DNA of 64,000 nt from an uncultured Actinomycetes bacterium (GTDB lineage: Bacteria > Actinomycetota > UBA4738 > HRBIN12). Made by a program: the position numbers and the translations under genes. Under the pieces are notes generated by a model, which saw nothing but the letters and a program-made list of their open reading frames with translations, was not told where the DNA came from and did no database searches. Each line of letters begins with the position of its first letter. The first letter of the stretch is position 1. Of the stretch, positions 14,970 through 41,500 are shown one piece after another. Location: positions 270,417 through 334,416 of the forward strand of contig CAVTIC010000001.1 of assembly GCA_963734685.1 (NCBI GenBank), written 5' to 3'.

Positions 14970-16574
14970 ATGGGGGACAGCGAACGCATGAGCGCGCGAG
15001 GTGTCCGCATCGTCGTCGGAGAGGGCCCCTCTACCAGGAAGGGCCTGCTCCGCTTCGTGCTGGACGGCGAGGGGTACGACGTGGTGGCCGAGGCCGCCAC
15101 CACGGCTGAACTCGCGCGCGTCATGGCCACGCACCGACCCGACGTCGTCGTGCTCGACGACGGCATCGGTGCGGTCGCCGTCGGCATGGTCAACGAGATG
15201 TCGCCCGCGACCAAGGTGGTCCTCGTGTGGCCCGGGGCGGTCATGCCGGTGGGCGGCGCCGCTCGGGTCGAGCCCTCGCGTGTGCTCCAGGATCTCGGGC
15301 CCACGGTGGAACGTCTCACCGGCCAGCCGAGCGTCTCGAGCGCGGGGGGCGGCGCAGCCCTCCTCGATCGAGCCGCCAACGATCCGGACATGCTGCGAGC
15401 CATGCTGCTCGGCGGCATGGCCGCGGTCGATGAGCCCATCATCGAGGATCGCGAGCCGGCACCGGTCGTGATCTTGCCGGTGACCCCCACGATCGACCGC
15501 GAGGGCGCGGTCCTGCAGGTTCCCGAGGCAGAGCCGGAAGACGGCGAGGGCGTGAGCGCTCCCGGAGCAGCGGTCGCCGGAGGCGTCGCGGCTGCGGCGA
15601 TCCTCGGTGGCACGACTTCGGCCGCGGCCGCTGAGGGCGCCGGGGCCGCTGTCGAGGCCGGCGCCGGCGCGGGCGGGGTCGCTGCGCGAGGTGCGAGCGT
15701 GGGCGCCCAGAGCGCGCTCAATCGCAGGCTGGGGAACATGGCCCTGGCCGGGGCCGCCGTCGCGAGCGCGCTCGTGCTGGCCCTCGCCGTCGGCAGCAAC
15801 CGGATCCCGATCGACGGCATCAGAGGAGGATCCGCCCCGACCTTCGGACCCGAGACACCCGGCCAGACCGATTCCACGGACGGCACCGGCGAAGGACCAC
15901 CCGGGACCGGCGAAGACAACGGCAACCCCGGCAACGACCAGACCAACGGTGGGTCGACCGAGATCTTCACGAGGACGGGAGGCAGCGACCTCCCGACACC
16001 CACGACCGCTCCTCCCGCACCGACCGGCCCCCCCGATGTCGGCGTTGAACCGGGCGACATCGGGTCCGGGACCGGTGGAGGCGGCGGTGGCGACGACGGT
16101 GGCGGAGGAGGGGACGACGGCGGCGGCGGCAGTGGTGGCGGCGACCCGGACGAAGGTGGCGGCGACGACGACCACGGCGGCGGCGATGCCGGCGGAGGTG
16201 GCAGCGAAGACGACGGTGGCGGTGGCGGTGGCGGTGGCGGTGGCGGTGGCGGTGGCGGTGGCGGTGGCGGTGGCGTGAGTGACGATGACGGCGATGACCA
16301 CGATGACGGCGATGACCACGATGACGGTGATGGCGATGACCACGGCGACGGCGGCGACCACGATGACGGTGATGGCGATGACCACGCCGGAGGGAGTGGC
16401 GACGGTGACGCCGGCGACCGCGACGAGCCGGGCGACGGCGCTGGCAGCGAGGACCCGGCTCACGTCGAGGGCGACGGCGCTGGCAGCGAGGACCCGGCTC
16501 ACGTCGAGGGCGACGGCGCTGGCAGCGAGGACCCGGCTCACGTCGAGGGCGACGGCGCAGATGGCGGGCACTGA
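14970..16574 (+). CDS. atypical receiver (REC)-domain protein with single TM helix and long disordered Gly/Asp/His-rich repetitive C-terminal tail
   Basis: N-terminus resembles CheY-like REC (RIVVGEGPSTRKGLLRFVLDGEGYDVVAEA…HRPDVVVLDDGIG…TKVVLV). The DD acidic pair is replaced by GEG. One TM helix (ALAGAAVASALVLALAVG). Then a G/T/P-rich linker, poly-Gly, (DDGDDHDDG)n and 3x GDGAGSEDPAHVE. Confidence 0.6.
   Translation: MGDSERMSARGVRIVVGEGPSTRKGLLRFVLDGEGYDVVAEAATTAELARVMATHRPDVVVLDDGIGAVAVGMVNEMSPATKVVLVWPGAVMPVGGAARVEPSRVLQDLGPTVERLTGQPSVSSAGGGAALLDRAANDPDMLRAMLLGGMAAVDEPIIEDREPAPVVILPVTPTIDREGAVLQVPEAEPEDGEGVSAPGAAVAGGVAAAAILGGTTSAAAAEGAGAAVEAGAGAGGVAARGASVGAQSALNRRLGNMALAGAAVASALVLALAVGSNRIPIDGIRGGSAPTFGPETPGQTDSTDGTGEGPPGTGEDNGNPGNDQTNGGSTEIFTRTGGSDLPTPTTAPPAPTGPPDVGVEPGDIGSGTGGGGGGDDGGGGGDDGGGGSGGGDPDEGGGDDDHGGGDAGGGGSEDDGGGGGGGGGGGGGGGGGGGGVSDDDGDDHDDGDDHDDGDGDDHGDGGDHDDGDGDDHAGGSGDGDAGDRDEPGDGAGSEDPAHVEGDGAGSEDPAHVEGDGAGSEDPAHVEGDGADGGH
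16215..16275. repeat. (GGTGGC)~10 hexanucleotide microsatellite (poly-Gly coding)
   Basis: ggtggcggtggc… run read directly, inside the REC-repeat gene. Confidence 0.8.
16434..16550. repeat. three perfect tandem copies of a 39-bp unit (gacggcgctggcagcgaggacccggctcacgtcgagggc)
   Basis: The units are identical at nucleotide level. They encode GDGAGSEDPAHVE x3 at the C-terminus of the REC-repeat protein. Confidence 0.85.
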
Positions 16575-22726: not shown

Positions 22727-23848
22727 ATGAGCTGGCCCGTGGTACGCGCGTCTGGAGGTCCGCGCACGCGCGGACGAGCCTACGGCGACGGCGCCCGAGA
22801 TCGGGTGCACGGCTCGATCGACCTGTATGCAGCCGTCTTCGCGCACTACACCGGCCTGTCGTGGTCCCGCGTGCGCGACCGCGCGGGAGCGTTCGTCGAG
22901 TGGATCGAGGCGACCGACGTGCAACTGCTGCCCGAGATCGAGGGCATCGCCGAAGGGGCGGGCGTCGATGCCGAGGACGTGCTCGCGCTCAACGTGCGCA
23001 CCGAGGTCATGTTCGGTCTCGACGCCCGCGCCGCGCGCGCAGCAGCCAGAGAGTGCACCGCGATCGCTGCCGCGCCGCCGCGCAGCTCCGGTGGCCGGGT
23101 GTTCGTGGCTCAGAACTGGGACTGGAAACCCGCGGCCCGCGACACTTGCGTGTTGCTCGCGATGCGCCCGCACGAGCGACCTGGGTTCGTCACCCTCGTG
23201 GAAGCCGGGCTGCTCGCGAAGTGCGGCATGAACGAGGCGGGCCTGGGGCTCGCGACGAACGCCCTCACGTCGAGCCGTGACCGCGGCCTGCCCGGTGTGC
23301 CGTTCCACGCGATCCTGCGGCGCATGCTCACGAGCACCTCGCTCGACGAGGCCGTCGACGTGGCGACCGGTTCCCATCGGGCATCGTCCGCGAACTACAT
23401 CATCGGCTCACGCGACGGCCGGGTCGTCGACATCGAGGTGGCGCCCGGCGGTCCCGACGCGGCGTGGCGCGTGGAGGGCCCGCTGGTGTGCCACGCGAAC
23501 CACTTCATGCGGCCCGACCGACCGTTCAAGGACCTCGCGCCGCTCGAGGGTCGGGACTCGTTCGACCGTCACGCCTCGGCCGAACGGTCCGCGGAGGCCG
23601 TCGAGGCCGTCGACCCGTCGGTGATCGAAGCGGCGCTGCGCGCCCACGCGGTGCCGGAACGGGACGAAGGGTCGGTCTGCGCGCACGGCGATCCTTCCCT
23701 GCCGCCGGAAGCGGACTACGTGACCGTCGCCTCGGTGATCATCGACCTCACGGCCGGAGAGCTACGGCTCACCGCCGGGAACCCCTGCGAGGCCCCGTTC
23801 ATGTCGCACCGCCTCGTGGACCTGCTTCCCGTTGCCGCCGAGTCGTAA
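22727..23848 (+). CDS. peptidase C45 / acyl-CoA:6-aminopenicillanic-acid acyltransferase-family protein (Ntn-type acyltransferase/hydrolase)
   Basis: …ARECTAIAA… candidate nucleophile Cys and …FVAQNWDW… …GMNEAGLGLATNAL… blocks typical of the AAT/C45 family. Confidence 0.65.
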   Translation: MSWPVVRASGGPRTRGRAYGDGARDRVHGSIDLYAAVFAHYTGLSWSRVRDRAGAFVEWIEATDVQLLPEIEGIAEGAGVDAEDVLALNVRTEVMFGLDARAARAAARECTAIAAAPPRSSGGRVFVAQNWDWKPAARDTCVLLAMRPHERPGFVTLVEAGLLAKCGMNEAGLGLATNALTSSRDRGLPGVPFHAILRRMLTSTSLDEAVDVATGSHRASSANYIIGSRDGRVVDIEVAPGGPDAAWRVEGPLVCHANHFMRPDRPFKDLAPLEGRDSFDRHASAERSAEAVEAVDPSVIEAALRAHAVPERDEGSVCAHGDPSLPPEADYVTVASVIIDLTAGELRLTAGNPCEAPFMSHRLVDLLPVAAES

Positions 23849-25269: not shown

Positions 25270-26028
25270 ATGTCCGGCGGAGCGAACGGCGGAGGCAGGC
25301 TCGAGGGGCGGACCGCCATGGTCACCGGCGGCACGTCGGGGATCGGCCTCGCGGTGGTATCGAGGTTCATCGGCGAAGGAGCCGAGACCACAGCGGTGGC
25401 CCGTCGCTATCGCCCCGAGGTCGACGACGTGGGGGCGCGATTCGTGGCCGCCGACGCCGCCGACCCGGACCTGATGCGAGCGGCGTTCGAGGCCACGGCC
25501 GATCGGGACGGGCCGCTGGACGTGCTGGTGCTCAACGCGGGCATCGCCGGCCTCGACGCCGAGACGCTCGAGGCGACCGACGTGACCGACGTGGCCGAGC
25601 TCCTGCGCGTGAACACGATGGGCGTGCTCCACGGGCTCGCCCTGGCGCCCCCGTACCTCCGCGACGGGGCAAGCATCATCATCACGGCGTCGGCGGCCAC
25701 GTCGTGGGCCTTCCCCGGGTACATGGGCTACAGCGCGTCGAAGGCCCCGCTCTATGAGTTGAGCCGGCACGCTGCCATGAAGCTCGGTCCCCGGGGGATC
25801 AGGGTCAACACGGTGAGCCCGGGGACGGTGCTCACGCCGATGCAGCCGGCAGACGATCCCGAGGCCCGCATCGCGCACGTCGCCACCTGCCTCGGCCGTC
25901 CGGCGCTCCCCGACGAAGTGGCCGGCGTGTACGTCTTCCTCGCGTCCGACGACAGTCGGTACGTGACCGGTACCGACATCAGGGCCGACGGAGGATGGCT
26001 CGATGGCCTCACCGAGGCGCACGCGTGA
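25270..26028 (+). CDS. classical short-chain dehydrogenase/reductase (SDR)
   Basis: TGGTSGIGLAV Rossmann motif, NAG, and a YSASK catalytic tetrad. It starts 14 nt after the oxoamine synthase stop. Confidence 0.8.
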   Translation: MSGGANGGGRLEGRTAMVTGGTSGIGLAVVSRFIGEGAETTAVARRYRPEVDDVGARFVAADAADPDLMRAAFEATADRDGPLDVLVLNAGIAGLDAETLEATDVTDVAELLRVNTMGVLHGLALAPPYLRDGASIIITASAATSWAFPGYMGYSASKAPLYELSRHAAMKLGPRGIRVNTVSPGTVLTPMQPADDPEARIAHVATCLGRPALPDEVAGVYVFLASDDSRYVTGTDIRADGGWLDGLTEAHA

Positions 26029-26327
26029 CGCGCTGCTCGCGGGTCTGTCCGAACCCAGGTCCGCCGCTGTTTCCGAGGCCCACAACGTCGCAGGTCAGAC
26101 GCGCTGACTACCCAGAACCGGGTATCAGCCATCGGGGGCCGGGACCGATAACGCAGAGGTGAAGAGCCGAGCGTGGATCGTGTATCCGGCGGTAGCGGTC
26201 GCGGCGACCGCCTTCTACTACCTGCTCGGCCACAACAGCTTCTTGTTCAACGTGATCGGGTTGTCGTCCCCGGTGCTGATCCTCGTCGCGGTGCACATGC
26301 ACCAACCCGAGAAGCGCGTCACCGTGG

Positions 26328-29300
26328 TTGTTGATCGCCGCCGGCCAGTTCCTGTTCATCGCCGGCGACATCGTCTCCTACAACTACGTGCACTTCTCGG
26401 ATGCGTTCCCGCAGGTGTTCCCGCTCGACTTCACGTTCAATCCGATGGGCGACGTGCCGTTCCCGGGACCGGCGGACCTGTTGTACCTCAGCGTCTATCC
26501 ATGCCTGATCGCCGGCGTGATGCTCCTGATCCGCGCGAGGAACCCGGGCCGCGACCGCGCGAGCCTGCTCGACTCGGCCATGGTGGCGATCGGCGTCGGC
26601 ACGGTCTCGTGGGTGCTGTTGATCGCGCCGTACCTCGACATCGCCGACCTGGACTTGAAGATCAAGCTCACGGCGATGGCCTACCCGACGATGGACCTCC
26701 TGCTCGCGGTGGTCGCGATCCGGCTGGCCGTGGGGGCGGGGCGTCGCCCGGTCGCGTTCTACCTGTTGATGGCGTCCATCGTGGCGTTGTTCGCCACCGA
26801 CGCGATCTACGCCTGGTTCGGTCTGTACACCGAGAGCGGGTACCAGCCGGGGAGCGGCTGGCTCGAAGCCGGCTGGATGTCGTTCTACGTGCTGCTGTGC
26901 ACCGCCGCCCTGCACCCGTCGATGCGTGCCCTGACCGAGCGGGCTCCCGAGCGCGAGGAGCGGCTCACCGTCGGCCGCCTCCTGCTGCTCACGGTGGCCG
27001 CCGTGTCGCCCCCGGTGTTGCGCCTCGTGCAGTGGGCCCGCGGCGAGGACGTCGACGTCGGCGTGCTGAGCGCCGCGTCGATCGTGCTGTTCCTGCTGGT
27101 CGTCGTCCGCATGGCGGGGTTGATCCGTCAGCAGGAGCGTTCCGCCGAGCGCGAGCGTGCCCTGCGGAAGGCGGGCGCGGCCCTCGTGACCGCCACGAGC
27201 CGCGAGGGCATCCATGAAGCTACGATCGACGCCGCGAGGGCCCTCGCCGGCGACGACGCGGCGATCCGCATGTGCGACGAGCCGGACGGGAAGGACCAAC
27301 TCGTGGTCGTCGCGGCGGCCGGCGGCACCGAGGACGTGCACGACGTCCGGTTCGCCTTCTCCACCTTGCAGGAATGGAAGCGCCAGCGCCTCCTGGAGAA
27401 CGACGCCTACCTGGTCAGGTCGTACGAGAGCACCCTGCGCGAGCCACTCAGCCTGCCCGCCGGCGACGAGGGCTCGGTCTTCGTCGCCCCCCTCTTCATC
27501 CGTGACGAGCTGCACGGACTGATGGTGGTGGCCACCCCGGAGGAGATGCCGCGCTCCGTCGCGGACTCCCTGCGGGCGCTCTCGTCGCAGGTGGCCCTCG
27601 CCCTCGAGTCCGCCGCGCTCACCGAGGACCTGGTGATCAAGCAGAGCGAGGCGCGGTTCGCCTCGCTCGTGAGCAACTCGTCCGACGTCGTCTGCGTGCT
27701 CGACCCCGACACGACCGTGACCTACGCGAGCCCGTCCACCCTCAGGGTGCTCGGCTTCGACCCGAGCCACGTCGAGGGCACGCGGTTCTCCGACCTGATC
27801 CACCCCGACGACATGACCCGGGTGCTGCAGTTCTTGTCCCCGGTCGGCGACGCCGAGGGGCACACCGGACTGGTGGAGTTCCGCATCCGGCGTCGCGACG
27901 GCGAGTATGTACATACCGAGACGCTTCGCACGACGCTGCTGCACGATCCGAACGTGCGGGGCATCGTGCTGAACACCCGTGACGTCACCGAACGCAAGCA
28001 GTTCGAGGAGCAGCTCTCGCACCAGGCCTTCCACGACACGGTCACGACGCTCGCGAACCGGGCGCTCTTCCACGACCGCGTCACGCACGCCTTGGAGCGC
28101 CAGGTGCGGGAGCACGAGCCGATCTCCGTGCTGTTCATGGACCTCGACGACTTCAAGACGATCAACGACTCCCTCGGGCACGCGGCGGGCGACCAGCTCC
28201 TGTACGAGGTCGGCGAGCGTCTGAAGGGCTGCTTGCGCGCAGCCGACACCGCCGCCCGCCTCGGCGGCGACGAGTTCGCGATCCTGCTCGAGGACAGCGA
28301 GGAAGGCGTGCAGGCGGCCGACGTGGCGGAGCGCATCATGCAGATGCTGGAGGAGCCGTTCACGCTCGAGGGCAAGGAGGTCTTCGTACGCGCGTCGGTG
28401 GGCATCGCCACCGCGGACGGCGAGCGGGCCGGCGACGTCGAGGAGCTGCTCCGCAACGCCGACGTCGCGATGTACATGGCCAAGGAACGCGGCAAGGGTC
28501 GGTACCAGGTGTTCGAGCCGGCGATGCACGACACGGCGCTCAAGCGTCTCGAACTCAAGGCCGACCTGCAGCGCGCGATCGAGCACGAGGAGTACCAGCT
28601 GCACTACCAGCCCGTGATCGAGCTCGAGACCGGACGCATCTCGGGCGTCGAGGCGCTCGTGCGATGGATCCACCCGGTTCGCGGCCTGGTGCCGCCGCTC
28701 GACTTCATCCCGCTCGCCGAGGAGACCGGGCTCATCGTGCCGATCGGACTCTGGGTCATGCGGGAAGCCTGCCGCTTCGCCGTCGAGCTGCAGGAGCGGT
28801 TCCCGAGCGATCCGTCGTTGCACATGGCGGTCAACCTCTCGGCCCGTCAGATCGCCCGGCCTGAGCTCGTCGACGAGGTGCGCGGGACCCTGGCCGAGAC
28901 GGGCCTCGAACCGCACTCCCTGATCCTCGAGATCACGGAGAGCGTGATGATGCAGGACATGGAGCTCTCGATCGAACGGCTCAGCGCTCTGAAGCGGATC
29001 GGCGTGCAGCTCGCGGTCGACGACTTCGGCACCGGGTACTCCTCGCTGAACTACATCCGGCGGTTCCCGGTCGACATCCTCAAGGTGGACAAGTCGTTCG
29101 TGGACGGGGTGAGCGAGGGCGGCGAGGCGTCGGCGCTGACCGCCGCGGTGATCGAGCTCGCGAGCATCCTCAACCTGAAGCCGGTGGCCGAAGGCATCGA
29201 GCGGGCCGACCAGCTCCAGCGCTTGCTCGAGCTCAGGTGCGACCTGGGGCAAGGCTTCTTCTTCGCGAAGCCGCTGCCGGGCGAGGAGTTGACCGCCCTG

Positions 29301-29363
29301 CTCGACGAACGCGCTGCGATGCAGTCCGAAGCCGACGCCCTCGCCCGCGGCCGTCAGCTCTGA
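26328..29363 (+). CDS. membrane sensor – GAF – PAS – GGDEF – EAL c-di-GMP signalling protein (N-terminal membrane domain apparently frameshifted; continues from 26159 in another frame)
   Basis: GGDEF (…RLGGDEFAILL…), EAL (…EALVRW…, …DDFGTGYSSL…, …KVDKSFV…), and multi-TM N-terminus. The ORF at 26159..26330 in a different frame encodes two more TM helices contiguous with it. Confidence 0.8.
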   Translation: MLIAAGQFLFIAGDIVSYNYVHFSDAFPQVFPLDFTFNPMGDVPFPGPADLLYLSVYPCLIAGVMLLIRARNPGRDRASLLDSAMVAIGVGTVSWVLLIAPYLDIADLDLKIKLTAMAYPTMDLLLAVVAIRLAVGAGRRPVAFYLLMASIVALFATDAIYAWFGLYTESGYQPGSGWLEAGWMSFYVLLCTAALHPSMRALTERAPEREERLTVGRLLLLTVAAVSPPVLRLVQWARGEDVDVGVLSAASIVLFLLVVVRMAGLIRQQERSAERERALRKAGAALVTATSREGIHEATIDAARALAGDDAAIRMCDEPDGKDQLVVVAAAGGTEDVHDVRFAFSTLQEWKRQRLLENDAYLVRSYESTLREPLSLPAGDEGSVFVAPLFIRDELHGLMVVATPEEMPRSVADSLRALSSQVALALESAALTEDLVIKQSEARFASLVSNSSDVVCVLDPDTTVTYASPSTLRVLGFDPSHVEGTRFSDLIHPDDMTRVLQFLSPVGDAEGHTGLVEFRIRRRDGEYVHTETLRTTLLHDPNVRGIVLNTRDVTERKQFEEQLSHQAFHDTVTTLANRALFHDRVTHALERQVREHEPISVLFMDLDDFKTINDSLGHAAGDQLLYEVGERLKGCLRAADTAARLGGDEFAILLEDSEEGVQAADVAERIMQMLEEPFTLEGKEVFVRASVGIATADGERAGDVEELLRNADVAMYMAKERGKGRYQVFEPAMHDTALKRLELKADLQRAIEHEEYQLHYQPVIELETGRISGVEALVRWIHPVRGLVPPLDFIPLAEETGLIVPIGLWVMREACRFAVELQERFPSDPSLHMAVNLSARQIARPELVDEVRGTLAETGLEPHSLILEITESVMMQDMELSIERLSALKRIGVQLAVDDFGTGYSSLNYIRRFPVDILKVDKSFVDGVSEGGEASALTAAVIELASILNLKPVAEGIERADQLQRLLELRCDLGQGFFFAKPLPGEELTALLDERAAMQSEADALARGRQL

Positions 29364-29448
29364 CGCCCCGTCGGTCGCCGGATCACCGCGCGGAAACCTC
29401 GCGGATCCCGTGGCGACGGGCCCGCGAGCCCGTACCCTGGTGCGGTCC

Positions 29449-30639
29449 ATGCGCCGGCTCCTGGTCACGATCGGTCTGAGCGTTGCGTTCGCGCTGCTTG
29501 CGCAGGCACCCTCGCTCGCCGCACCCCCTCGGTGGGTGCAGCGCGTCGACCGTCTGGTCGGCGCCCGGCCGGTATCGGTCGTGATCGGCTACGCGGGCGA
29601 CACGCTCTATCACCACCACGACCGGGTGCGCCGTCCCCCCGCGTCGAACGAGAAGCTGCTGCTCTCGATGGCGCTGCTGAAACGCGTGGGCGCCGACGCC
29701 ACCCTGCCGACCCGCGTGCTCGCCACCGAGAGGATCGGAGCCGACGGCGTGCTCGAGGGCGATCTGTGGATCGTCGGTCACGGCGATCCGGAGATCGACG
29801 GCACGGACATGGCTGCGCTCGCGCGAGCGCTGGCTGCAGGCGGGGTGGAGCGCGTGCGCGGACGGGTGTTCGGCGCCACGGGCCCGTTCGCACGGGACTG
29901 GTTCGCGCCGGGGTGGCGCGACTACTTCCCCGACTACTACATCGCTTTGCCGACGGCACTCACGTTCCGTTTCAACGAACGGGCGGGTGGGCGACACGTC
30001 ACCGACCCCGAACGCCTCGCCGCGAGAGCACTCACGAAGAAGCTGGAAGCTCGCGGTGTGCGCGTGTCCGGGAAGGCCGGCCTCGGCCCCGCTCCGAAGG
30101 GACTCGTGGGAGTGGCGACGGTGCAGAGCGATCCGCTCGCGGAGATCATGCGGCGGATGAACACGGTGTCGAGCAACTTCCGGGCCGAGGTGCTCGGCAA
30201 GATGCTCGGCGCGACCCGGATCCGCCCGCCGGGCACGATCGCGAAGGGAGCGCGAGCGATCGAGACGTTCGCCGCGAGCCGCGGCGTGCGGGTCACGGCG
30301 CATGACTCGTCAGGCCTCTCGTACGACAACAGGGTGACCGCCCAGGGCATCGTGGAACTCCTCACCGACGCCGAGCGGGCCCCGTGGGGCGAGATCCTGC
30401 GCGGCACCTTGCCGGCGGGCGGCGAGGGCACCCTCGACGGCCGCCTCGAGACCGTGACCCTGCGAGCGAAGACCGGCACCCTGATCGACGTGTCCGCACT
30501 CTCCGGTTGGGTGTGGCTCGAGCGCGAGGATGCGTGGGCGGCCTTCTCGATCCTGTCGAGCGGCATGGACGAGGATCGGGCGAAGATGATCGAGAACAAG
30601 ATCGTGCGCGTGGTCAGCGCCAACGCCGGCCCGCGCTGA
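29449..30639 (+). CDS. dacB: D-alanyl-D-alanine carboxypeptidase/endopeptidase (PBP4, peptidase S13)
   Basis: Signal peptide, SxxK (ASNEKLL), SxN-like and KTG (KTGT) motifs of class-C PBPs. Confidence 0.75.
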   Translation: MRRLLVTIGLSVAFALLAQAPSLAAPPRWVQRVDRLVGARPVSVVIGYAGDTLYHHHDRVRRPPASNEKLLLSMALLKRVGADATLPTRVLATERIGADGVLEGDLWIVGHGDPEIDGTDMAALARALAAGGVERVRGRVFGATGPFARDWFAPGWRDYFPDYYIALPTALTFRFNERAGGRHVTDPERLAARALTKKLEARGVRVSGKAGLGPAPKGLVGVATVQSDPLAEIMRRMNTVSSNFRAEVLGKMLGATRIRPPGTIAKGARAIETFAASRGVRVTAHDSSGLSYDNRVTAQGIVELLTDAERAPWGEILRGTLPAGGEGTLDGRLETVTLRAKTGTLIDVSALSGWVWLEREDAWAAFSILSSGMDEDRAKMIENKIVRVVSANAGPR

Positions 30640-30680: not shown

Positions 30681-32270
30681 TCACTCCTCGGGCGCCCGCG
30701 GATGGAGCAGCCCGAACGTGTAGCCGTCGACGAGCGCTTCCCACGACGCCTCGATGATGTTCTCACTCACCCCCACCGTGGTCCACTCGCGCTCGCCGTT
30801 CGACAGGTCGATCAGCACCCTCACGACGGCGCCGGTGCCGTGGGTGCCGCTGAGCACACGCACCCGGAAGTCCTCGAGCTCCATCTGGTCGAGTGCTGGG
30901 TAGTCGTTCGCGAGCGCCTTGCGCAACGCGGTGTCGAGCGCGCCCACGGGACCCTGGCCTTCGGCCGACTCGATGTGACGCGAGCCCTGCGTGCGAACCT
31001 TCACCGTGGCCTCGGCGAGCGGCGGCTCGTCGTCGCCGACCCGTTCCTCGACGTGCACGCGGTAGCTCTCGATCTCGAAGAACGGCTGGGACCAGCCTCC
31101 GGCGCGACGCATCAGCATCTCGAGCGAGGCCTCGGCCACATCGAACGCGTAGCCGAGCGACTCGCGTTGCTTGATCTGCTCGACCACCGCCGGGATCGAC
31201 GCATCGTCCAGATCGAGGCCGAGCTCCTCGGCCTTCATGCGGATCGTGGCGCTGCCGCCGTAGTCCGATGCCACCACGCCTCGGCGGTTCCCGACCGTCT
31301 CGGGAGGCACGTGCTCGTAGGCGCGAGAGACCCGCGCGACGCCGCTCGTGTGCAATCCAGCCTTGTGCGTGAACGCGTACCGCCCCGTGTACGGCTGGCG
31401 CGAGTCGGGCGCCAGGTTCGCGATCTCCGCCACGTAGTGGGCGAGCTCGGTGAGGTGCTCGACGGCCCCTTCGGGCAACGCGTCGGTCGCCCCCATCTTC
31501 AGCACGAGGTCCGCCGTGAGCGGGATCAGGTCGGCGTTGCCGGTGCGCTCGCCGTAACCGTTGATCGTCCCCTGCACCTGGAGCACACCGGCGTCGACCG
31601 CCACGAGCGAGTTCGCGACCGCGCATCCGGCATCGTTGTGCACGTGGATGCCGAGCGGCACGCTCGCCTGCGCCTTCACCTCGCCGACGACCCGCCCGAT
31701 GTCGAAGGGCAGCATGCCGCCGTTCGTGTCGCAGAGCACGAGGCGCTCGGCGCCGGCTTCCTCGGCCGCAGCGAGCACGGCCATCGCGAACGCCCGGTCG
31801 GACCGGTAGCCGTCGAAGAAGTGCTCGGCGTCGAAGAACACCCGGCGCCCCTGGGTGCGCAGGAACTCGACCGAGTCGCGCACCATCGCGACCCCTTCCT
31901 CCAGGTCGGTGCGCAGGGCCGCCGTGATGTGCAGGTCCCAGGACTTCCCGACGAGGCACACGACCTCGGTACCGGCATCGAGCAGGTCACGCAGCACCTG
32001 GGACCCGTCGGCGCGCTCCCCCGCACGCCGGGTCATGCCGAACGCCGTGAGCGTGCTGGTCTTCAGTGTCTCCTCCGTCGCGAGCCGGAAGAACTCGGTG
32101 TCGCGAGGGTTCGCGCCCGGCCAGCCACCTTCCACGTACGGGAAGCCGATCTGGTCGAGCTTGTGCAGGATGCGGAGCCGGTCCTCGACCGTGTACGAGA
32201 GGTCGGCCTGCTGCGCGCCGTCACGCAGGGTCGTGTCGTACAGCTCGACGACGGGGGCAGGCTCGTTCAT
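30681..32270 (-). CDS. cimA: (R)-citramalate synthase (LeuA-family, CimA type)
   Basis: …YDTTLRDGAQ…VEGGWPGANPRD… signature of the CimA clade, the HxH metal site (IHVHND), and a LeuA-dimer C-terminal domain. GGAGGG RBS. ATGA overlap with the leuB stop. Confidence 0.8.
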   Translation of the reverse strand: MNEPAPVVELYDTTLRDGAQQADLSYTVEDRLRILHKLDQIGFPYVEGGWPGANPRDTEFFRLATEETLKTSTLTAFGMTRRAGERADGSQVLRDLLDAGTEVVCLVGKSWDLHITAALRTDLEEGVAMVRDSVEFLRTQGRRVFFDAEHFFDGYRSDRAFAMAVLAAAEEAGAERLVLCDTNGGMLPFDIGRVVGEVKAQASVPLGIHVHNDAGCAVANSLVAVDAGVLQVQGTINGYGERTGNADLIPLTADLVLKMGATDALPEGAVEHLTELAHYVAEIANLAPDSRQPYTGRYAFTHKAGLHTSGVARVSRAYEHVPPETVGNRRGVVASDYGGSATIRMKAEELGLDLDDASIPAVVEQIKQRESLGYAFDVAEASLEMLMRRAGGWSQPFFEIESYRVHVEERVGDDEPPLAEATVKVRTQGSRHIESAEGQGPVGALDTALRKALANDYPALDQMELEDFRVRVLSGTHGTGAVVRVLIDLSNGEREWTTVGVSENIIEASWEALVDGYTFGLLHPRAPEE

Positions 32271-33707: not shown

Positions 33708-35297
33708 TCACGGGGTCTCCTCGTTCGACGCGCTCTGTGACGACATGTGCAAGGCCCGGTTGACCGCGGCGAGATAGGCGCGCGCGCTCGCCTCGACGAC
33801 GTCGGTGGCGACGCCACGGCCGGTCACCCGGCGCCCGTCGACGTCGATCTGCACGACGACGTCACCGAGCGCGTCGGTGCCGCCGGTCACGCTCGAGACG
33901 TGGAAGTTCACGAGTCGACCCTCGACGCCGGCGGCCCGTTGGATCGCACCCATCGCGGCGTCGATCAGGCCGTCGCCCATCGCGGATTCCTCGATCACCT
34001 CCTCGCCACGGCGCAGACGCACGGTGGCCCGGGGTTGCAGATGCGTGCCGCCGCCCATCTGCAGTGACTCCATCACGAGCACGTCCTCGTCGGTCGCGCC
34101 GAGCTCCTCGGCGACGATCGCCGCGAGGTCCTGATCGGTGATCTGCACCTTGCGATCGGCGAGATCCTTGAACCGGCCGAATGCTCGGTTCAGGTGATCG
34201 TCGTCGAGCGAGATGCCGATCTTGTCGAGGGCGTCGACGAACGCGTGCCGGCCGGAGTGCTTGCCCAGCACGAGCGCGTTGCCCTCGAGCCCGATCTCGA
34301 CCGGATCCATGATCTCGTAGGTCGCGCGGTTGCTCAGTACGCCGTGCTGATGGATGCCGCTCTCGTGCGCGAACGCGCTCGAGCCCACGACCGCCTTGTT
34401 CGGCTGCACGTTGTACCCGGTCGTCATCGCGACGAGACGAGAGGTGCGGACGATCTCCTTGATGTTCAGGTCGTGCGAGCGTCCGAGTGCCTGACCGCGC
34501 GTGCGGATGATCATCGCGATCTCCTCCAACGAGCAGTTGCCGGCGCGCTCTCCGATGCCGTTGACCGCGACCTCGACCTGCCCGGCGCCGTTCTCGATGC
34601 CTGCGAGCGAGTTCGCGACCGCAAGCCCGAGGTCGTTGTGGCAGTGGGTCGAGATCACGATCTCGTCGGGCGTCTGGTCACGCACGATACGGATCAGCTC
34701 GCCGAATTCCGTCGGGGTCGCGTAGCCGACCGTGTCGGGGACGTTGATCGTGGTCGCGCCGCACTCGACCGCGAGCCGGTAACACTCCAGCAGGAACTCG
34801 AGCGGCGTGCGCGTGGCGTCCTGCGCCGAAAACTCCACGTCATCGGTGTAGCTCTTCGCGAGCGAGACGTTCTCGCGGATCGCGTCGAGCACCTGCTGGA
34901 GGCTCATCTTCAGCATCGATTCGCGCTGCACGTCGCTCGTGGAGATGAACGTGTGGATGCGCCAGCGGTCGGCGCCCTTGAGCGCCTCGGCCGCGCGCTC
35001 GATGTCGCCGGTCGCGGTGCGCGCGAGCGCTGCGATCACCGGTCCCTTCACCGTCGAGGCGATCTCGCTGACCGCGTCGAACTCGCCGGGAGACGAGATC
35101 GGGAAGCCCGCCTCGAGGATGTCGACGTTCAGACGGGCGAGCTGCTCGGCGATCTCGACCTTCTCGGCCTTCGTCAACGCGATGCCGGGGGCTTGCTCCC
35201 CGTCGCGAAGGGTCGTGTCGAAGATGCGGACCCGGTTCCCGGTGGGACCGGCGACCGCGCCAGGTACGTCGGATACGTTGCCGTTGCTATCGCTCAT
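33708..35297 (-). CDS. leuA: 2-isopropylmalate synthase (short bacterial type)
   Basis: …[14 protein letters not shown]…, [14 protein letters not shown], …[13 protein letters not shown]…, and a LeuA-dimer C-terminus. GGAAGGTG RBS. The ATG overlaps the ilvC stop (ATGA). Confidence 0.85.
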
Positions 35298-36308
35298 GCG
35301 GGTGGCACCTTCCGTTCGCTCTCCAGCCAGGGCATCATCTGGCGCAGCTGCCGTCCCACCTGTTCGAGCTGGGACGTCTGCGCCTGCTGGCGAAGTCGGA
35401 AGAACTCCTCGAAGCCACCGTCGGCCTCGGCGATCCACCTCTTCGCGAACGTGCCGTCCTGGATCTCGGCGAGCACCTGGCGCATCCGGTCGCGCGTGTG
35501 ATCGTCGATCACCCGTGGGCCGCTGCTGGTAGTCGCCCCACTCGGCCGTGTCGCTCACCGAGTACCGCATCCACGAGAGCCCACCCTCGTAGATCAGGTC
35601 GATGATCAGCTTCAGCTCGTGCAGGCACTCGAAGTACGCGATCTCGGGCTGGTAGCCCGCTTCGACCAGCGTCTCGAAGCCGTTGCGGATGAGCTCGCTG
35701 ATGCCGCCGCAGAGCACCGTCTGCTCGCCGAACAGATCGGTCTCGGTCTCTTCCTTGAACGTGGTCTCGATGATGCCGGGCTTCGCGCACCCGATCGCCG
35801 CACCGTAGGCGAGCGCGCGGGCCTTCGCCTTGCCGGTCGCATCCTGGTGCACAGCCACGAGGCCGGGGGTGCCGTTCCCCTCCACGTACGTGCGGCGCAC
35901 GAGGTGGCCGGGACCCTTGGGTGCGATCATCGTCACGTCGACACCGGCGGGCGGGATCACCGTGCCGAAGTGGATCGAGAACCCGTGGGCGAACATCAAC
36001 ATGTCGCCGTCCTTCAGGTTCGGCGCGATGTCACTCGCGTACGCGGCACCGTGGGCGGTGTCGGGGAGCAGGCACATCACGACGTCGGCCTCGGCGACGG
36101 CCCCGTCGGTGTCGAGCACGCGGAGCCCGGCGTCCTCGGCCTGCTTGCGGCTGGGCGAGCCCGGGCGGAGCCCGACCCGCACGTCGAGGCCCGAGTCCTG
36201 CATGTTCTGGGCGTGCGCGTGCCCCTGCGACCCGAACCCGAGCACCGCGAGCTTCTGATCGGCGAGCACGCCGGGGTCGGTGTCCTTCTCGTAGTAGATC
36301 GTCGCCAT
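35294..36308 (-). CDS. ilvC: ketol-acid reductoisomerase, interrupted by a 1-nt frameshift near 35515
   Basis: N-terminal 260 aa (MATIYYEKD…[13 protein letters not shown]…) is in one frame. The C-terminus (…[26 protein letters not shown]…MMPWL) is in the frame of ORF 35294..35512. The junction is …taccagCagcggccc… (one extra nt). Confidence 0.8.
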
Positions 36309-36365
36309 CGCTCTTCTCTCCCCAGACGTGCTCGTGGCCGTCGCCGGCCGATAGTCTGACCTGGA

Positions 36366-36896
36366 CTAGCCGGCCTTCGCCGACTTCAACACGCGTTCCC
36401 TGATGCCGCGCTCGCCCCGCGCGAGCGCGATGCGCCCGGTTCGCGAGAGCTCCACGATGCCGAACTCGCTCAGCAGCTCGCGGAGCGCCTCGAGCTTCTC
36501 GGGGCCGCCGCTCGCCTCCACGGTGAGCGTCGACGCGGTGACGTCGACGATGCTCACGCGGAAGACGTCGGCCAGCTCCATGATGCGGGCGCGGGCATCG
36601 CCCTCTGCCCGCACCTTCACGAGCATCAGCTCGCGCTCGACGGCCGTGCCCGGATCGTGCTCGAGGATCTTGATCACGTTGATCAGCTTGTTGAGCTGCT
36701 TCGTGACCTGCTCGAGCGGGCTCTCGTCGACGTTGACGACGATCGTCATGCGCGAGATGCCCGGCGCCTCGGTCGCACCGACCGCGAGCGAGTCGATGTT
36801 GTAGCCACGGGCCGCGAAGAGGCCCGCCACCCGGGTGAGCACACCCGGGCGGTCCTCCACGAGCACCGAGATCGTGTGCAGCGTCGCGCCGTTCAT
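36366..36896 (-). CDS. ilvN: acetolactate synthase small (regulatory) subunit
   Basis: ACT domain ([43 protein letters not shown]…). The ATG overlaps the ilvB stop. Confidence 0.85.
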   Translation of the reverse strand: MNGATLHTISVLVEDRPGVLTRVAGLFAARGYNIDSLAVGATEAPGISRMTIVVNVDESPLEQVTKQLNKLINVIKILEHDPGTAVERELMLVKVRAEGDARARIMELADVFRVSIVDVTASTLTVEASGGPEKLEALRELLSEFGIVELSRTGRIALARGERGIRERVLKSAKAG

Positions 36897-38649
36897 GCGA
36901 TCGGAGCCTCCCCCGGGTCGGTCGTCGGCTGGATGCTCTCGGGCCCGACGATGATGTCGTCGTTCGAGGCGCCCGACGGCACCATCGGGAACACCATCTC
37001 GGCCGGGTCGATCCGGAAGTCGATCACGACCGAACGATCGGTGACCGAGTACGCCTTCTCGATCGCCGTGTCGACCTCGTCGGGCGACTCCACCCTGAGG
37101 CCGACGGCCCCGTACGCCTCGGCGAGCTTGACGTAGTCGGGCACGTTCGGGTCGAGCCAGACGCCAGAGTAACGCTCGTCGAAGAACAGCTCCTGCCACT
37201 GCCGCACCATGCCGAGGTACCCGTTGTTCAGGATCGCGGTCACGAACGGGATCTTCTCGGTGGCGCTCGTCGCGAGTTCCTGGGCCGTCATCTGGAAGCA
37301 ACCATCGCCGTCGATCGCGACCACGCGCTTGTCGGGCTGGCCGGCTTTGGCACCCATCGCCGCCGGCACCGCGAAACCCATCGTGCCGAGGCCGCCGGAG
37401 TTGATCCACCGGCGCGGGTGCTCGAACCGCCAGAACTGCGAGGCGTACATCTGATGCTGGCCGACGCCGGAGACGCAGATCGTGTCGTCGTCGGCGAGTG
37501 CGCGCAGGCGCTCGACGCAGTGCTGCGGCTTCAACTTCCCGTCGCTCATGTCGTACCGATACGGATACGTCTGCTGCCACTCGCGGAGTTGTCCGAGCCA
37601 TGCGGCCCGATCGGGAGCGCCACCGGCCTCGTCCTGACGCTTGTGCAGCTCGGCGGCGAGCTTGCCGATCACGTCCCGGCAGTCACCCACGATCGGCACG
37701 TCGGCGACGCGGTTCTTACCGATCTCGGCCGGATCGATGTCGACGTGGATCACCCCGGCGTGTGGCGCGAACGCGACGAGCTTGCCGGTGACACGGTCGT
37801 CGAAGCGCGAGCCCAGCGCGACGAGCAGGTCGGCCTTCTGCATCGCGGTGACGGCCGAGTAGTTGCCGTGCATGCCCGGCATGCCGAGGCACAGCTCGTG
37901 CGAGTCCGGGAACGCCCCACGTGCCATCAGCGTCGTGACGACCGGCAGCTGACCGGTCGTGGCGAGGTCGAACAGCTCTTCGTGCGCGTCGGCCTTGATC
38001 ACGCCGCCGCCCACGTAGAGCACCGGCCGTTTGGCGCGCATGATCATCCTCACGGCCTCGACGACCTGTCGCTGGTTGCCCTTCGTGTTCGGCTTGTAGC
38101 CGGGCAACGAGACGTTCTCCGGCCAGCGGTACGTGGTCTCGGCGAGCAGCACGTCCTTGGGCAGGTCGATCAACACGGGGCCGGGGCGGCCGGTCGACGC
38201 GATATGGAACGCCTCGCGCACGGTCGGACGATGTCGGCCGGATCCTTCACGAGGAAGTTGTGCTTGGTGACCGGCATCGTGATCCCCGTGATGTCGGCTT
38301 CCTGGAAGGCGTCGTTGCCGACCACCGGCGTCGGCACCTGGCCGGTGATCGCGACGATCGGCACGGAGTCCATCTTCGCGTCGGCGAGCGGGGTGACGAG
38401 GTTCGTCGCCCCGGGACCGCTCGTGGCCATGCACACGCCGACGCGACCCGTCGCCCACGCGTAGCCCTCGGCGGCGTGCCCTGCGCCCTGTTCGTGCCGG
38501 CACAGGATGTGACGGATGGGCGACCGGTCGACCAGCGGGTCGTAGATCGGCATGCTCGCGCCGCCCGGGATGCCGAAGACGACCTCGACGCCTTCCTGCT
38601 CGAGCGCCGTCAGCAGCGCGTCGGCGCCGGACATCTTGGAGCCGGTCAT
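36893..38649 (-). CDS. ilvB: acetolactate synthase large subunit, interrupted by a 1-nt frameshift near 38215
   Basis: N-terminus ([30 protein letters not shown]…) is in the frame of ORF 38170..39003. The rest (…[25 protein letters not shown]… to the end, ThDP motif GGLGTMGF) is in the frame of 36893..38713. Confidence 0.8.
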
Positions 38650-38975
38650 CGTGCGGCCGCCTGCTCTCTGTCCTCTCGTGCCTCCACCGGACCGGTCTCG
38701 ACGCGGCGGACATGGGCCTGCAGGCGGTGCGCCAGGTTGCGGCAGGCGCGCTCGAACTCCCAGGGCGTCCAGTCGCGTCGGCGCGTCTGGAGCACGTCTT
38801 GCTCTTGCTCCTCGCCGAAGTCGAAGCCCGAGCCCAGGTAGACGACGTCGGACGACAGGTATCGATCGACGACCGCGCGCGTCGAAGGCTCGGCGGACTC
38901 GACGCTCACCTGGCCCGGACCCTCCCAGAGCACGCTGGCGACGACGGTGCCGTCTCGCTCGAACTCGTACCGCAT
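38646..38975 (-). CDS. hypothetical 109-aa protein encoded between the ilv attenuator and ilvB; stop overlaps the ilvB ATG
   Basis: AAGGAGA RBS 5 nt before the ATG at 38975. Non-Arg-rich composition ([24 protein letters not shown]…). TGA/ATG overlap with ilvB. No family recognised. Confidence 0.45.
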
Positions 38976-39039
38976 GGGGTTCTCCTTGTCTCCGGGCGTT
39001 CACCCGGTGTTGGTGTTGCGGTGGCTGGCGGCTGGGTAC

Positions 39040-40552: not shown

Positions 40553-41500
40553 TTGACCGAGCTCGAGTCCGCCGCGTACCGTCGATCGGTGGAGCCTCGC
40601 GGCGACCCCCGGCTCGAGGCGGCGATCCGCGCCGTCGGTGCGTGGCGAGGCCGCGACATCGGCGTCACGCCAGTGTCGATCGGCGAGGAAGACCGTCACT
40701 TCCTGATCGAGGCAGACGACGAGCTCTTCGTGCTCAGGCTCGCGAACGCCTCGGCACCCGTCGCCCGGGCCGCCGTGTCGACCGAGATCGAGGTGGCGCG
40801 GGCCGCCGCGGCGGCCGGTGTCGCCCCGGGATTGCTCGAACACCTCCCGCAGTTCGGGTGTCTGATCACGCGGTTCGCGACGGGACGGCGGCTCAGTTCC
40901 GGTGACGTGGGCGACGACCAGCTCACCTCGATCGTGGGCTCGGTCCGGGCGCTCCACGCCTGCCCCGCGCCCACCGCGAGGCGTTCGGTCTTCCGCGATG
41001 CCGAAGACCTGCGGCACGCGGCGATCTCGAGCGGGATGTCCATGCCCGACATCGAACCGGCTGCGACCCGAGCGATGCGACGGATCGAGGCGGCGACCGC
41101 GCTCGAGGTCGCGCCGACGGTCACGTGCCACGGCGATCTCACTCGCGCCAGTCTGTGCTTCGACCGCGACCATGTGTGGATCGTGGATTTCAGGTGGGCG
41201 GGCGCAGGAGACGCCTTCGAAGACCTCGGGAGCCTCGCCGCCCACCTCGACCTCTCGGACGAGCACGCCGATCGCCTGCTGCGCCTGTACTTCGGATCGT
41301 CCGACGATGCGCGTCGAGCACAGCTCGACGTGATGCGGCTCGCAGCCGAGTACATGGCGGCCATGCGAGCCCTCTCGCGCACAGCTTCGGGCCCACCGGG
41401 GAGAGCGCAGGAGGCAGACCATCGACTCGCCCGCATGCTCGACGACACAGCAACCGATCGTTTCGACCGATCGGTGCGGGTGGTCGCCGCTCGTCGCTGA
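40553..41500 (+). CDS. aminoglycoside/choline-kinase-type phosphotransferase (APH family) protein
   Basis: Brenner motif [12 protein letters not shown] and IVDFRWAG. Size 315 aa. Confidence 0.65.

Follow-up and report, generated by a model that had tools for sequence, protein, structure and literature searches.

What does it mean for an uncultured actinobacterium when two consecutive enzymes of its branched-chain amino-acid pathway are both encoded by frameshifted genes? The question arises from a 64-kb stretch of metagenomic DNA (the window; G+C content ~69%), in which ilvB and ilvC, encoding the large subunit of acetolactate synthase and ketol-acid reductoisomerase, are each interrupted by a single-base insertion or deletion (indel), while the neighboring genes of the pathway are complete. 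The first-pass annotation of this DNA had considered two answers: indel errors in the assembly, for example in homopolymers or low-complexity sequence, or a genuine auxotroph with a host-associated or syntrophic lifestyle. Comparison with conspecific and more distant sequences indicates that the frameshifts in ilvB, ilvC and an unrelated GGDEF-EAL gene are very probably consensus errors at strain-variable sites, in a metagenome contig that was probably assembled from long reads.

Single-base lesions in three genes

Both lesions in the amino-acid cluster are real features of the given sequence, a -1 nt change in ilvB and a +1 nt change in ilvC, as first described with coordinates about 10 nt off. 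On the minus strand, ilvC reads GAC TAC CAG [C] AGC GGC, with the CAG codon at 35528-35526, the extra C at 35525 and the AGC codon starting at 35524; the window at 35522-35528 reads CAGCAGC, and the string originally quoted for this lesion, taccagCagcgg, is the exact site. In ilvB, the minus strand reads ATC GTC [ ]CG ACC, where one base is absent between 38227 and 38226 (window sequence at 38222-38229: GTCCGACC). A cyclic di-GMP gene with GGDEF and EAL domains had been listed as having the same kind of defect, and it does: an extra T is found at 26319, at a position where all relatives encode K-R-A-P-W.

The two pieces of ilvB fall on adjoining stretches of the NCBIfam profile NF005860 (profile length 615), and the two pieces of ilvC on adjoining stretches of NF004017 (profile length 337; see Table 1 for positions). 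Apart from a single clean one-base lesion, each gene is thus complete, which agrees with the initial view that the flanking frames are conserved and free of other lesions. Left unrepaired, the ilvB pieces score 253 and 661 bits and the N-terminal ilvC piece scores 443 bits. A one-base repair of ilvB yields a colinear 585-residue IlvB with 930 bits against the NF005860 / TIGR00118 equivalog cut-off of 881, a status that the whole protein reaches only after the repair; a one-base repair of ilvC yields a colinear 337-residue IlvC with 531.6 bits against the NF004017 equivalog cut-off of 336.

Further, a GC-frame Viterbi scan for same-strand frame switches without a stop codon finds just these three in all 64 kb, the same count of indels that the first-pass annotation had reached. 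The products of ilvN, leuA, cimA, leuB, ilvD and thrC are full length according to their NCBIfam profiles; all but the last had already been called intact. As a consequence of the insertion in ilvC, the shifted frame runs stop-free into the leuA frame and creates an 866-residue fused open reading frame (ORF) at 33708-36308. The protein collection lacks the exact LeuA sequence, as would be expected of a fused gene call. The 866-residue IlvC-LeuA ORF should be treated as spurious.

Relatives, strain polymorphism and selection

The closest available sequences are three contigs from three different samples: L001 (ENA assembly ERZ25039536, contig_36241, 305 kb), and L002 and L003 (two JGI metagenomes). 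They share 97-98% DNA identity with the window, carry an identical IlvN protein, and all encode a 585-residue IlvB and a 337-residue IlvC; relative to them, the window has one base more at 35525 and one base fewer at 38226/38227. The comparison with sister genomes or metagenome-assembled genomes (MAGs) for which the first-pass annotation had called thus finds all three in frame at both sites. The same holds for the relatives aligned at the two sites (~40 for ilvC, ~25 for ilvB), and ten more JGI contigs at 89% identity have both genes intact. Moreover, tblastn searches of the repaired proteins against ~165 loci return single full-length alignments in 132 (IlvC) and 119 (IlvB) of them. Besides truncation at contig ends, a frame change is found only in the window, in the ilvB gene of L005 and in the ilvC gene of L137; in these searches and site alignments, no conspecific or congeneric contig has either of the window's lesions. 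L137 is a distant JGI contig (IlvC 56% identical) whose ilvC gene (L137:636-1630) changes frame at about residue 53. The closest GTDB representatives, L004 and L005, are only ~87% identical to the window, and none is at species level.

The positions of the lesions were compared with the differences between conspecific strains. L002, L003 and a further contig, L164, are near-identical to one another and count as one strain (the JGI strain), which was aligned with the window and L001 over ~9 kb. In these three-way alignments, just three indels are private to the window, at 35527 (ilvC), 38226 (ilvB) and 39022 (intergenic), and each is no more than 1 nt away from a position at which L001 and the JGI strain disagree (null expectation 5-7%). 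In particular, the ilvC and ilvB indels are as close as this to adjacent double substitutions that distinguish the sisters, for which the null expectations are 0.31% and 0.23% (joint probability ~7e-6). At the ilvC site, the JGI strain has TACCAGAGCGGC, L001 has TACCGCAGCGGC and the window has TACCAGCAGCGGC; the window's 7-mer equals the L002 (JGI-strain) allele plus a C, and also the L001 allele plus an A, without a substitution relative to either, making it the shortest common supersequence of both sister alleles. At the ilvB site, the strains differ in one codon, ATG in the JGI strain (L003) but GCG in L001, where the window has just the two bases CG. The extra T at 26319 adjoins a synonymous GCG/GCA difference. 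The intergenic indel at 39022, upstream of a 109-residue ORF, is a private one-base deletion in a G run, 1 nt from a sister-strain difference.

Spontaneous 1-nt indels are mostly slippage events in runs. The indels in ilvC, in ilvB and at 26319 are not located in homopolymers, and none duplicates or removes an identical neighboring base, which makes them unlike replication slippage. An assembly origin, as initially proposed, is well in keeping with private frameshifts, the lack of relaxed selection and the private indels of related long-read assemblies described below, but a homopolymer or low-complexity cause does not agree with lesions at strain-variable codons. A real mutation has no reason to favor codons that are polymorphic elsewhere, and a consensus caller faced with mixed haplotypes has one, which favors an artefact. 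A switch from JGI-like to L001-like haplotype at the indels was looked for, and the window was found to be a fine mosaic of both throughout; a shared sequence or methylation motif was discarded, as several sites are CGCG-rich but have no motif in common. An apparent fourth frameshift in the window, at 23768, was also rejected, being a CT duplication (CTCT) that belongs to the sister contig (L164:7588), where it fuses an AAT-family gene and the next aminotransferase gene into an 817-residue ORF; the window's two-gene version has a coding-like base composition, and so the window is correct at this position. This duplication, the one indel assignable to a sister contig, is of the slippage type.

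The substitutions in both broken genes show purifying selection, with no sign of relaxed selection or decay. When the repaired window genes are compared with the sisters, the pN/pS ratio (non-synonymous to synonymous polymorphism) is 0.04-0.24, and comparing the sisters with each other gives the same range. The changes confined to the window lineage are 16 synonymous and 2 non-synonymous ones in ilvB and one in all in ilvC. Neither gene has a secondary lesion in addition to its single indel, and the rest of the pathway (ilvN, ilvD, leuA, leuB and cimA) is intact.

The data type of the source assembly is suggested by its size and by its relatives. The window's exact IlvN, CimA, ThrC, IlvD and 109-residue proteins are found on one NCBI/ENA contig of 1,486,436 bp; a megabase contig from an uncultured soil-type actinobacterium suggests a long-read source. 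The closest GTDB representatives include Microflora Danica (MFD) MAGs, which were assembled from Nanopore reads only, using Flye and one round of Medaka (PMC12313526), and residual Nanopore indels cause frameshifted gene calls below ~40-fold coverage (PMC9262707). One such representative, L005 (MFD09206.bin.2.30), carries a private insertion of its own in ilvB, the bracketed G in GTCGGCC[G]AGCCC (L005:~9557, about residue 435; extended context GTCGGCC[G]AGCCCGAC), which all other relatives lack. Consequently, both frameshifted ilvB genes, that of the window and that of L005, are on contigs of long-read type, and the JGI contigs are intact. In L001, whose contig name is Flye-style, 22 private 1-nt indels, almost all of them insertions, fall within 3.7 kb (L001:16700-20500, window 26400-30113) and fragment its GGDEF-EAL and peptidase S13 genes; neither the window nor the JGI contigs have such indels in this region, where the consensus of L001 seems to be locally poor. 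Of these 22 indels, 36% are within 2 nt of a single-nucleotide polymorphism (SNP) between the window and the JGI strain, compared to 10% expected.

Weighing the explanations

The explanation that best accommodates these results is that co-occurring conspecific strains differ by adjacent substitutions, and that an assembler or polisher would merge or drop bases at such positions when no haplotype is chosen. At the ilvC site, the alleles CAGAGC and CGCAGC would have been merged into CAGCAGC; at the ilvB site, the codon that varies between the sisters (GCG or ATG) would have lost a base. The organism would then keep a working ilvBNC-leuA-leuB-cimA cluster and make its own branched-chain amino acids, and it should be treated as a prototroph for them. 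Similar indels are present elsewhere in the same assembly, at 26319 and 39022, and their density is modest, with three coding frameshifts in 64 kb. Several points weigh against this explanation. The proposed artefact is recognized by comparing sequences and not at the level of reads, and we infer both its origin in consensus calling and the platform used for the source contig. A mixture of haplotypes accounts well for ilvC but only loosely for ilvB, and for 26319 only by way of the synonymous SNP beside it; the sister alleles were recovered from other samples, and it is assumed that they co-occur in the source sample. Moreover, ten other large genes in the window match Pfam end to end, including the 4.8-kb gene of a 1610-residue NAD-glutamate dehydrogenase, and the error rate is therefore not uniformly high.

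An artefact of another origin, unrelated to strain mixture, could be a random low-coverage error, a basecalling error at a methylation motif or mis-polishing with short reads. It would agree with the CGCG-rich context of several sites and with L001, where only about a third of the private indels are close to a strain SNP and many errors are not tied to one. However, the placement of the ilvB and ilvC lesions on adjacent double substitutions has the very small joint probability given above, and the absence of a common motif also argues against such causes, which are highly improbable here. Genuine and very recent mutations would have removed acetolactate synthase and ketol-acid reductoisomerase, leaving an auxotroph fed by its neighbors through a Black-Queen-type loss. 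The given sequence is indeed frameshifted in two consecutive steps of one pathway, and the ilvB frameshift of the related L005, at another position, could be read as recurrent loss. Against this, neither lesion is present in any conspecific or congeneric contig, secondary lesions are absent at a low pN/pS, the five other pathway genes are all intact, and the unrelated GGDEF-EAL gene has a lesion of the same kind; the indels also coincide with sister-strain polymorphisms, as independent mutations are not expected to do, are not of the slippage type, and affect ilvB only on long-read-type contigs. Overall, a genuine loss is unlikely, and the host-associated or syntrophic auxotroph initially suggested finds no support, as ilvB and ilvC are intact in all relatives of the same species or genus.

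It is very doubtful, in its more specific form, that a free-living soil actinobacterial strain very recently lost two consecutive branched-chain amino-acid steps and that a related species (L005) independently lost function in ilvB; if true, it would suggest that the loss of this costly pathway recurs in natural populations and is still under way. Programmed ribosomal frameshifting or transcriptional slippage could in principle bypass real frameshifts and yield full-length enzymes, which agrees with both flanking frames being open and conserved. There is next to no chance of this, however: neither the ilvB nor the ilvC site has an X XXY YYZ heptamer, a prfB-like stop, a Shine-Dalgarno context or an A/T run; the shift is absent from every relative, although programmed sites are conserved; no Rfam element is found in the window; and neighboring genes would need shifts in opposite directions (+1 and -1).

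The preferred explanation, consensus errors at strain-variable sites, has practical consequences. Taken at face value, the sequence would lead an automated metabolic reconstruction to call the organism an auxotroph for valine, leucine and isoleucine, and an annotator would likewise record the spurious IlvC-LeuA fusion. The signature of these errors, non-homopolymer indels at codons with adjacent strain substitutions and, in one case, an exact supersequence of both alleles, could flag artefacts in long-read MAGs without the reads, provided that conspecific sequences are available.

Gene content and comparison with known systems

The features of the locus are listed in Table 1. On the minus strand between 30.7 and 38.7 kb, the gene order is the 109-residue ORF, ilvB, ilvN, ilvC, leuA, a small plus-strand gene, leuB and cimA; thrC and ilvD are placed farther along the window than this cluster. 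The leuB gene is flanked by two LeuA-family paralogues, a 2-isopropylmalate synthase (33708-35297) and a citramalate synthase (30681-32270), the latter of which implies a threonine-independent citramalate route to isoleucine. The 109-residue ORF (38646-38975, minus strand) has a stop codon that overlaps the ilvB start and is conserved at the same position in all close relatives; it has no Pfam match on record.

Table 1. Coordinates of the ilvB-ilvN-ilvC-leuA genes, their frameshift sites and the frameshifted GGDEF-EAL gene in the window.
Feature	Coordinates	Strand	Evidence
ilvB (acetolactate synthase large subunit), N-terminal part, residues 1-141	38649-38227	-	NF005860 positions 32-173; tblastn of repaired IlvB
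ilvB frameshift site, 1 base missing in codon 142	38226..38227	-	alignment to ~25 relatives
ilvB, C-terminal part, residues 143-585 and stop	36893..38224 (residues 143-585: 38224-36896)	-	NF005860 positions 174-608
ilvN (acetolactate synthase small subunit), intact, 176 residues	36366..36896	-	NF008864, 220 bits against a cut-off of 119
ilvC (ketol-acid reductoisomerase), N-terminal part, residues 1-261	35526..36308	-	NF004017 positions 1-264
ilvC frameshift site, extra C between CAG (Q261) and AGC (S262)	35525	-	~40 aligned relatives without the base
ilvC, C-terminal part, residues 262-337 and stop	35294..35524	-	NF004017 positions 266-332
leuA (2-isopropylmalate synthase), intact	33708..35297	-	NCBIfam
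PAS-GGDEF-EAL gene with private frameshift, extra T at 26319	26159..29363	+	L164 and all protein relatives: EKRAPW

Elsewhere in the window, a weak-coding stretch at 13.4-16.6 kb was considered for frameshifts and rejected, as short genes and a low-complexity gene rich in Gly and Asp account for it. The gene at 14970-16574 (plus strand) has an N terminus that is response-regulator-like by eye only and a long Gly/Asp-rich tail with tandem GDGAGSEDPAHVE repeats; its repeat region (16300-16520) has several indels relative to L164. At 26026, an extra T relative to L164 makes the TGA stop of a short-chain dehydrogenase gene (25270-26028, 252 residues), whose L164 version is 10 residues longer. The window and L001 differ by one base in a TT/TTT run at 40553-40556, right at the start of an aminoglycoside-phosphotransferase-like gene, called with 333 residues in L001 and with 315 residues from the window's TTG start; the difference may be another indel or merely a choice of start codon. 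Rfam and tRNA scans of the window gave no matches.

Three known systems were compared with the locus. As in programmed frameshifts (the +1 site of prfB, the -1 site of dnaX and the IS3-family transposases), two overlapping frames jointly encode one protein; unlike them, the window's sites are without a slippery motif or stimulatory element, and the shift is conserved in no relative. Pseudogenization in host-dependent or syntrophic bacteria likewise places frameshifted biosynthetic genes beside intact neighbors, but real decay brings several lesions, a raised dN/dS (the ratio of non-synonymous to synonymous substitution rates), lesions common to a lineage and, as a rule, indels of the slippage type, and the window has none of these signs. 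Residual indels in Nanopore MAGs are known to give frameshifted gene calls, and have been addressed by IDEEL scores and proovframe (PMC9262707, PMC12313526, bioRxiv 10.1101/2021.08.23.457338). The window differs from the classic homopolymer form of this error in that its three sites are at strain-variable codons, on a platform that is itself deduced. It resembles long-read MAG errors in that genes without other faults are each split by a single-base indel, in that these indels are confined to one assembly and found on a megabase source contig, and in that the related long-read contigs L001 and L005 have other private indels of their own.

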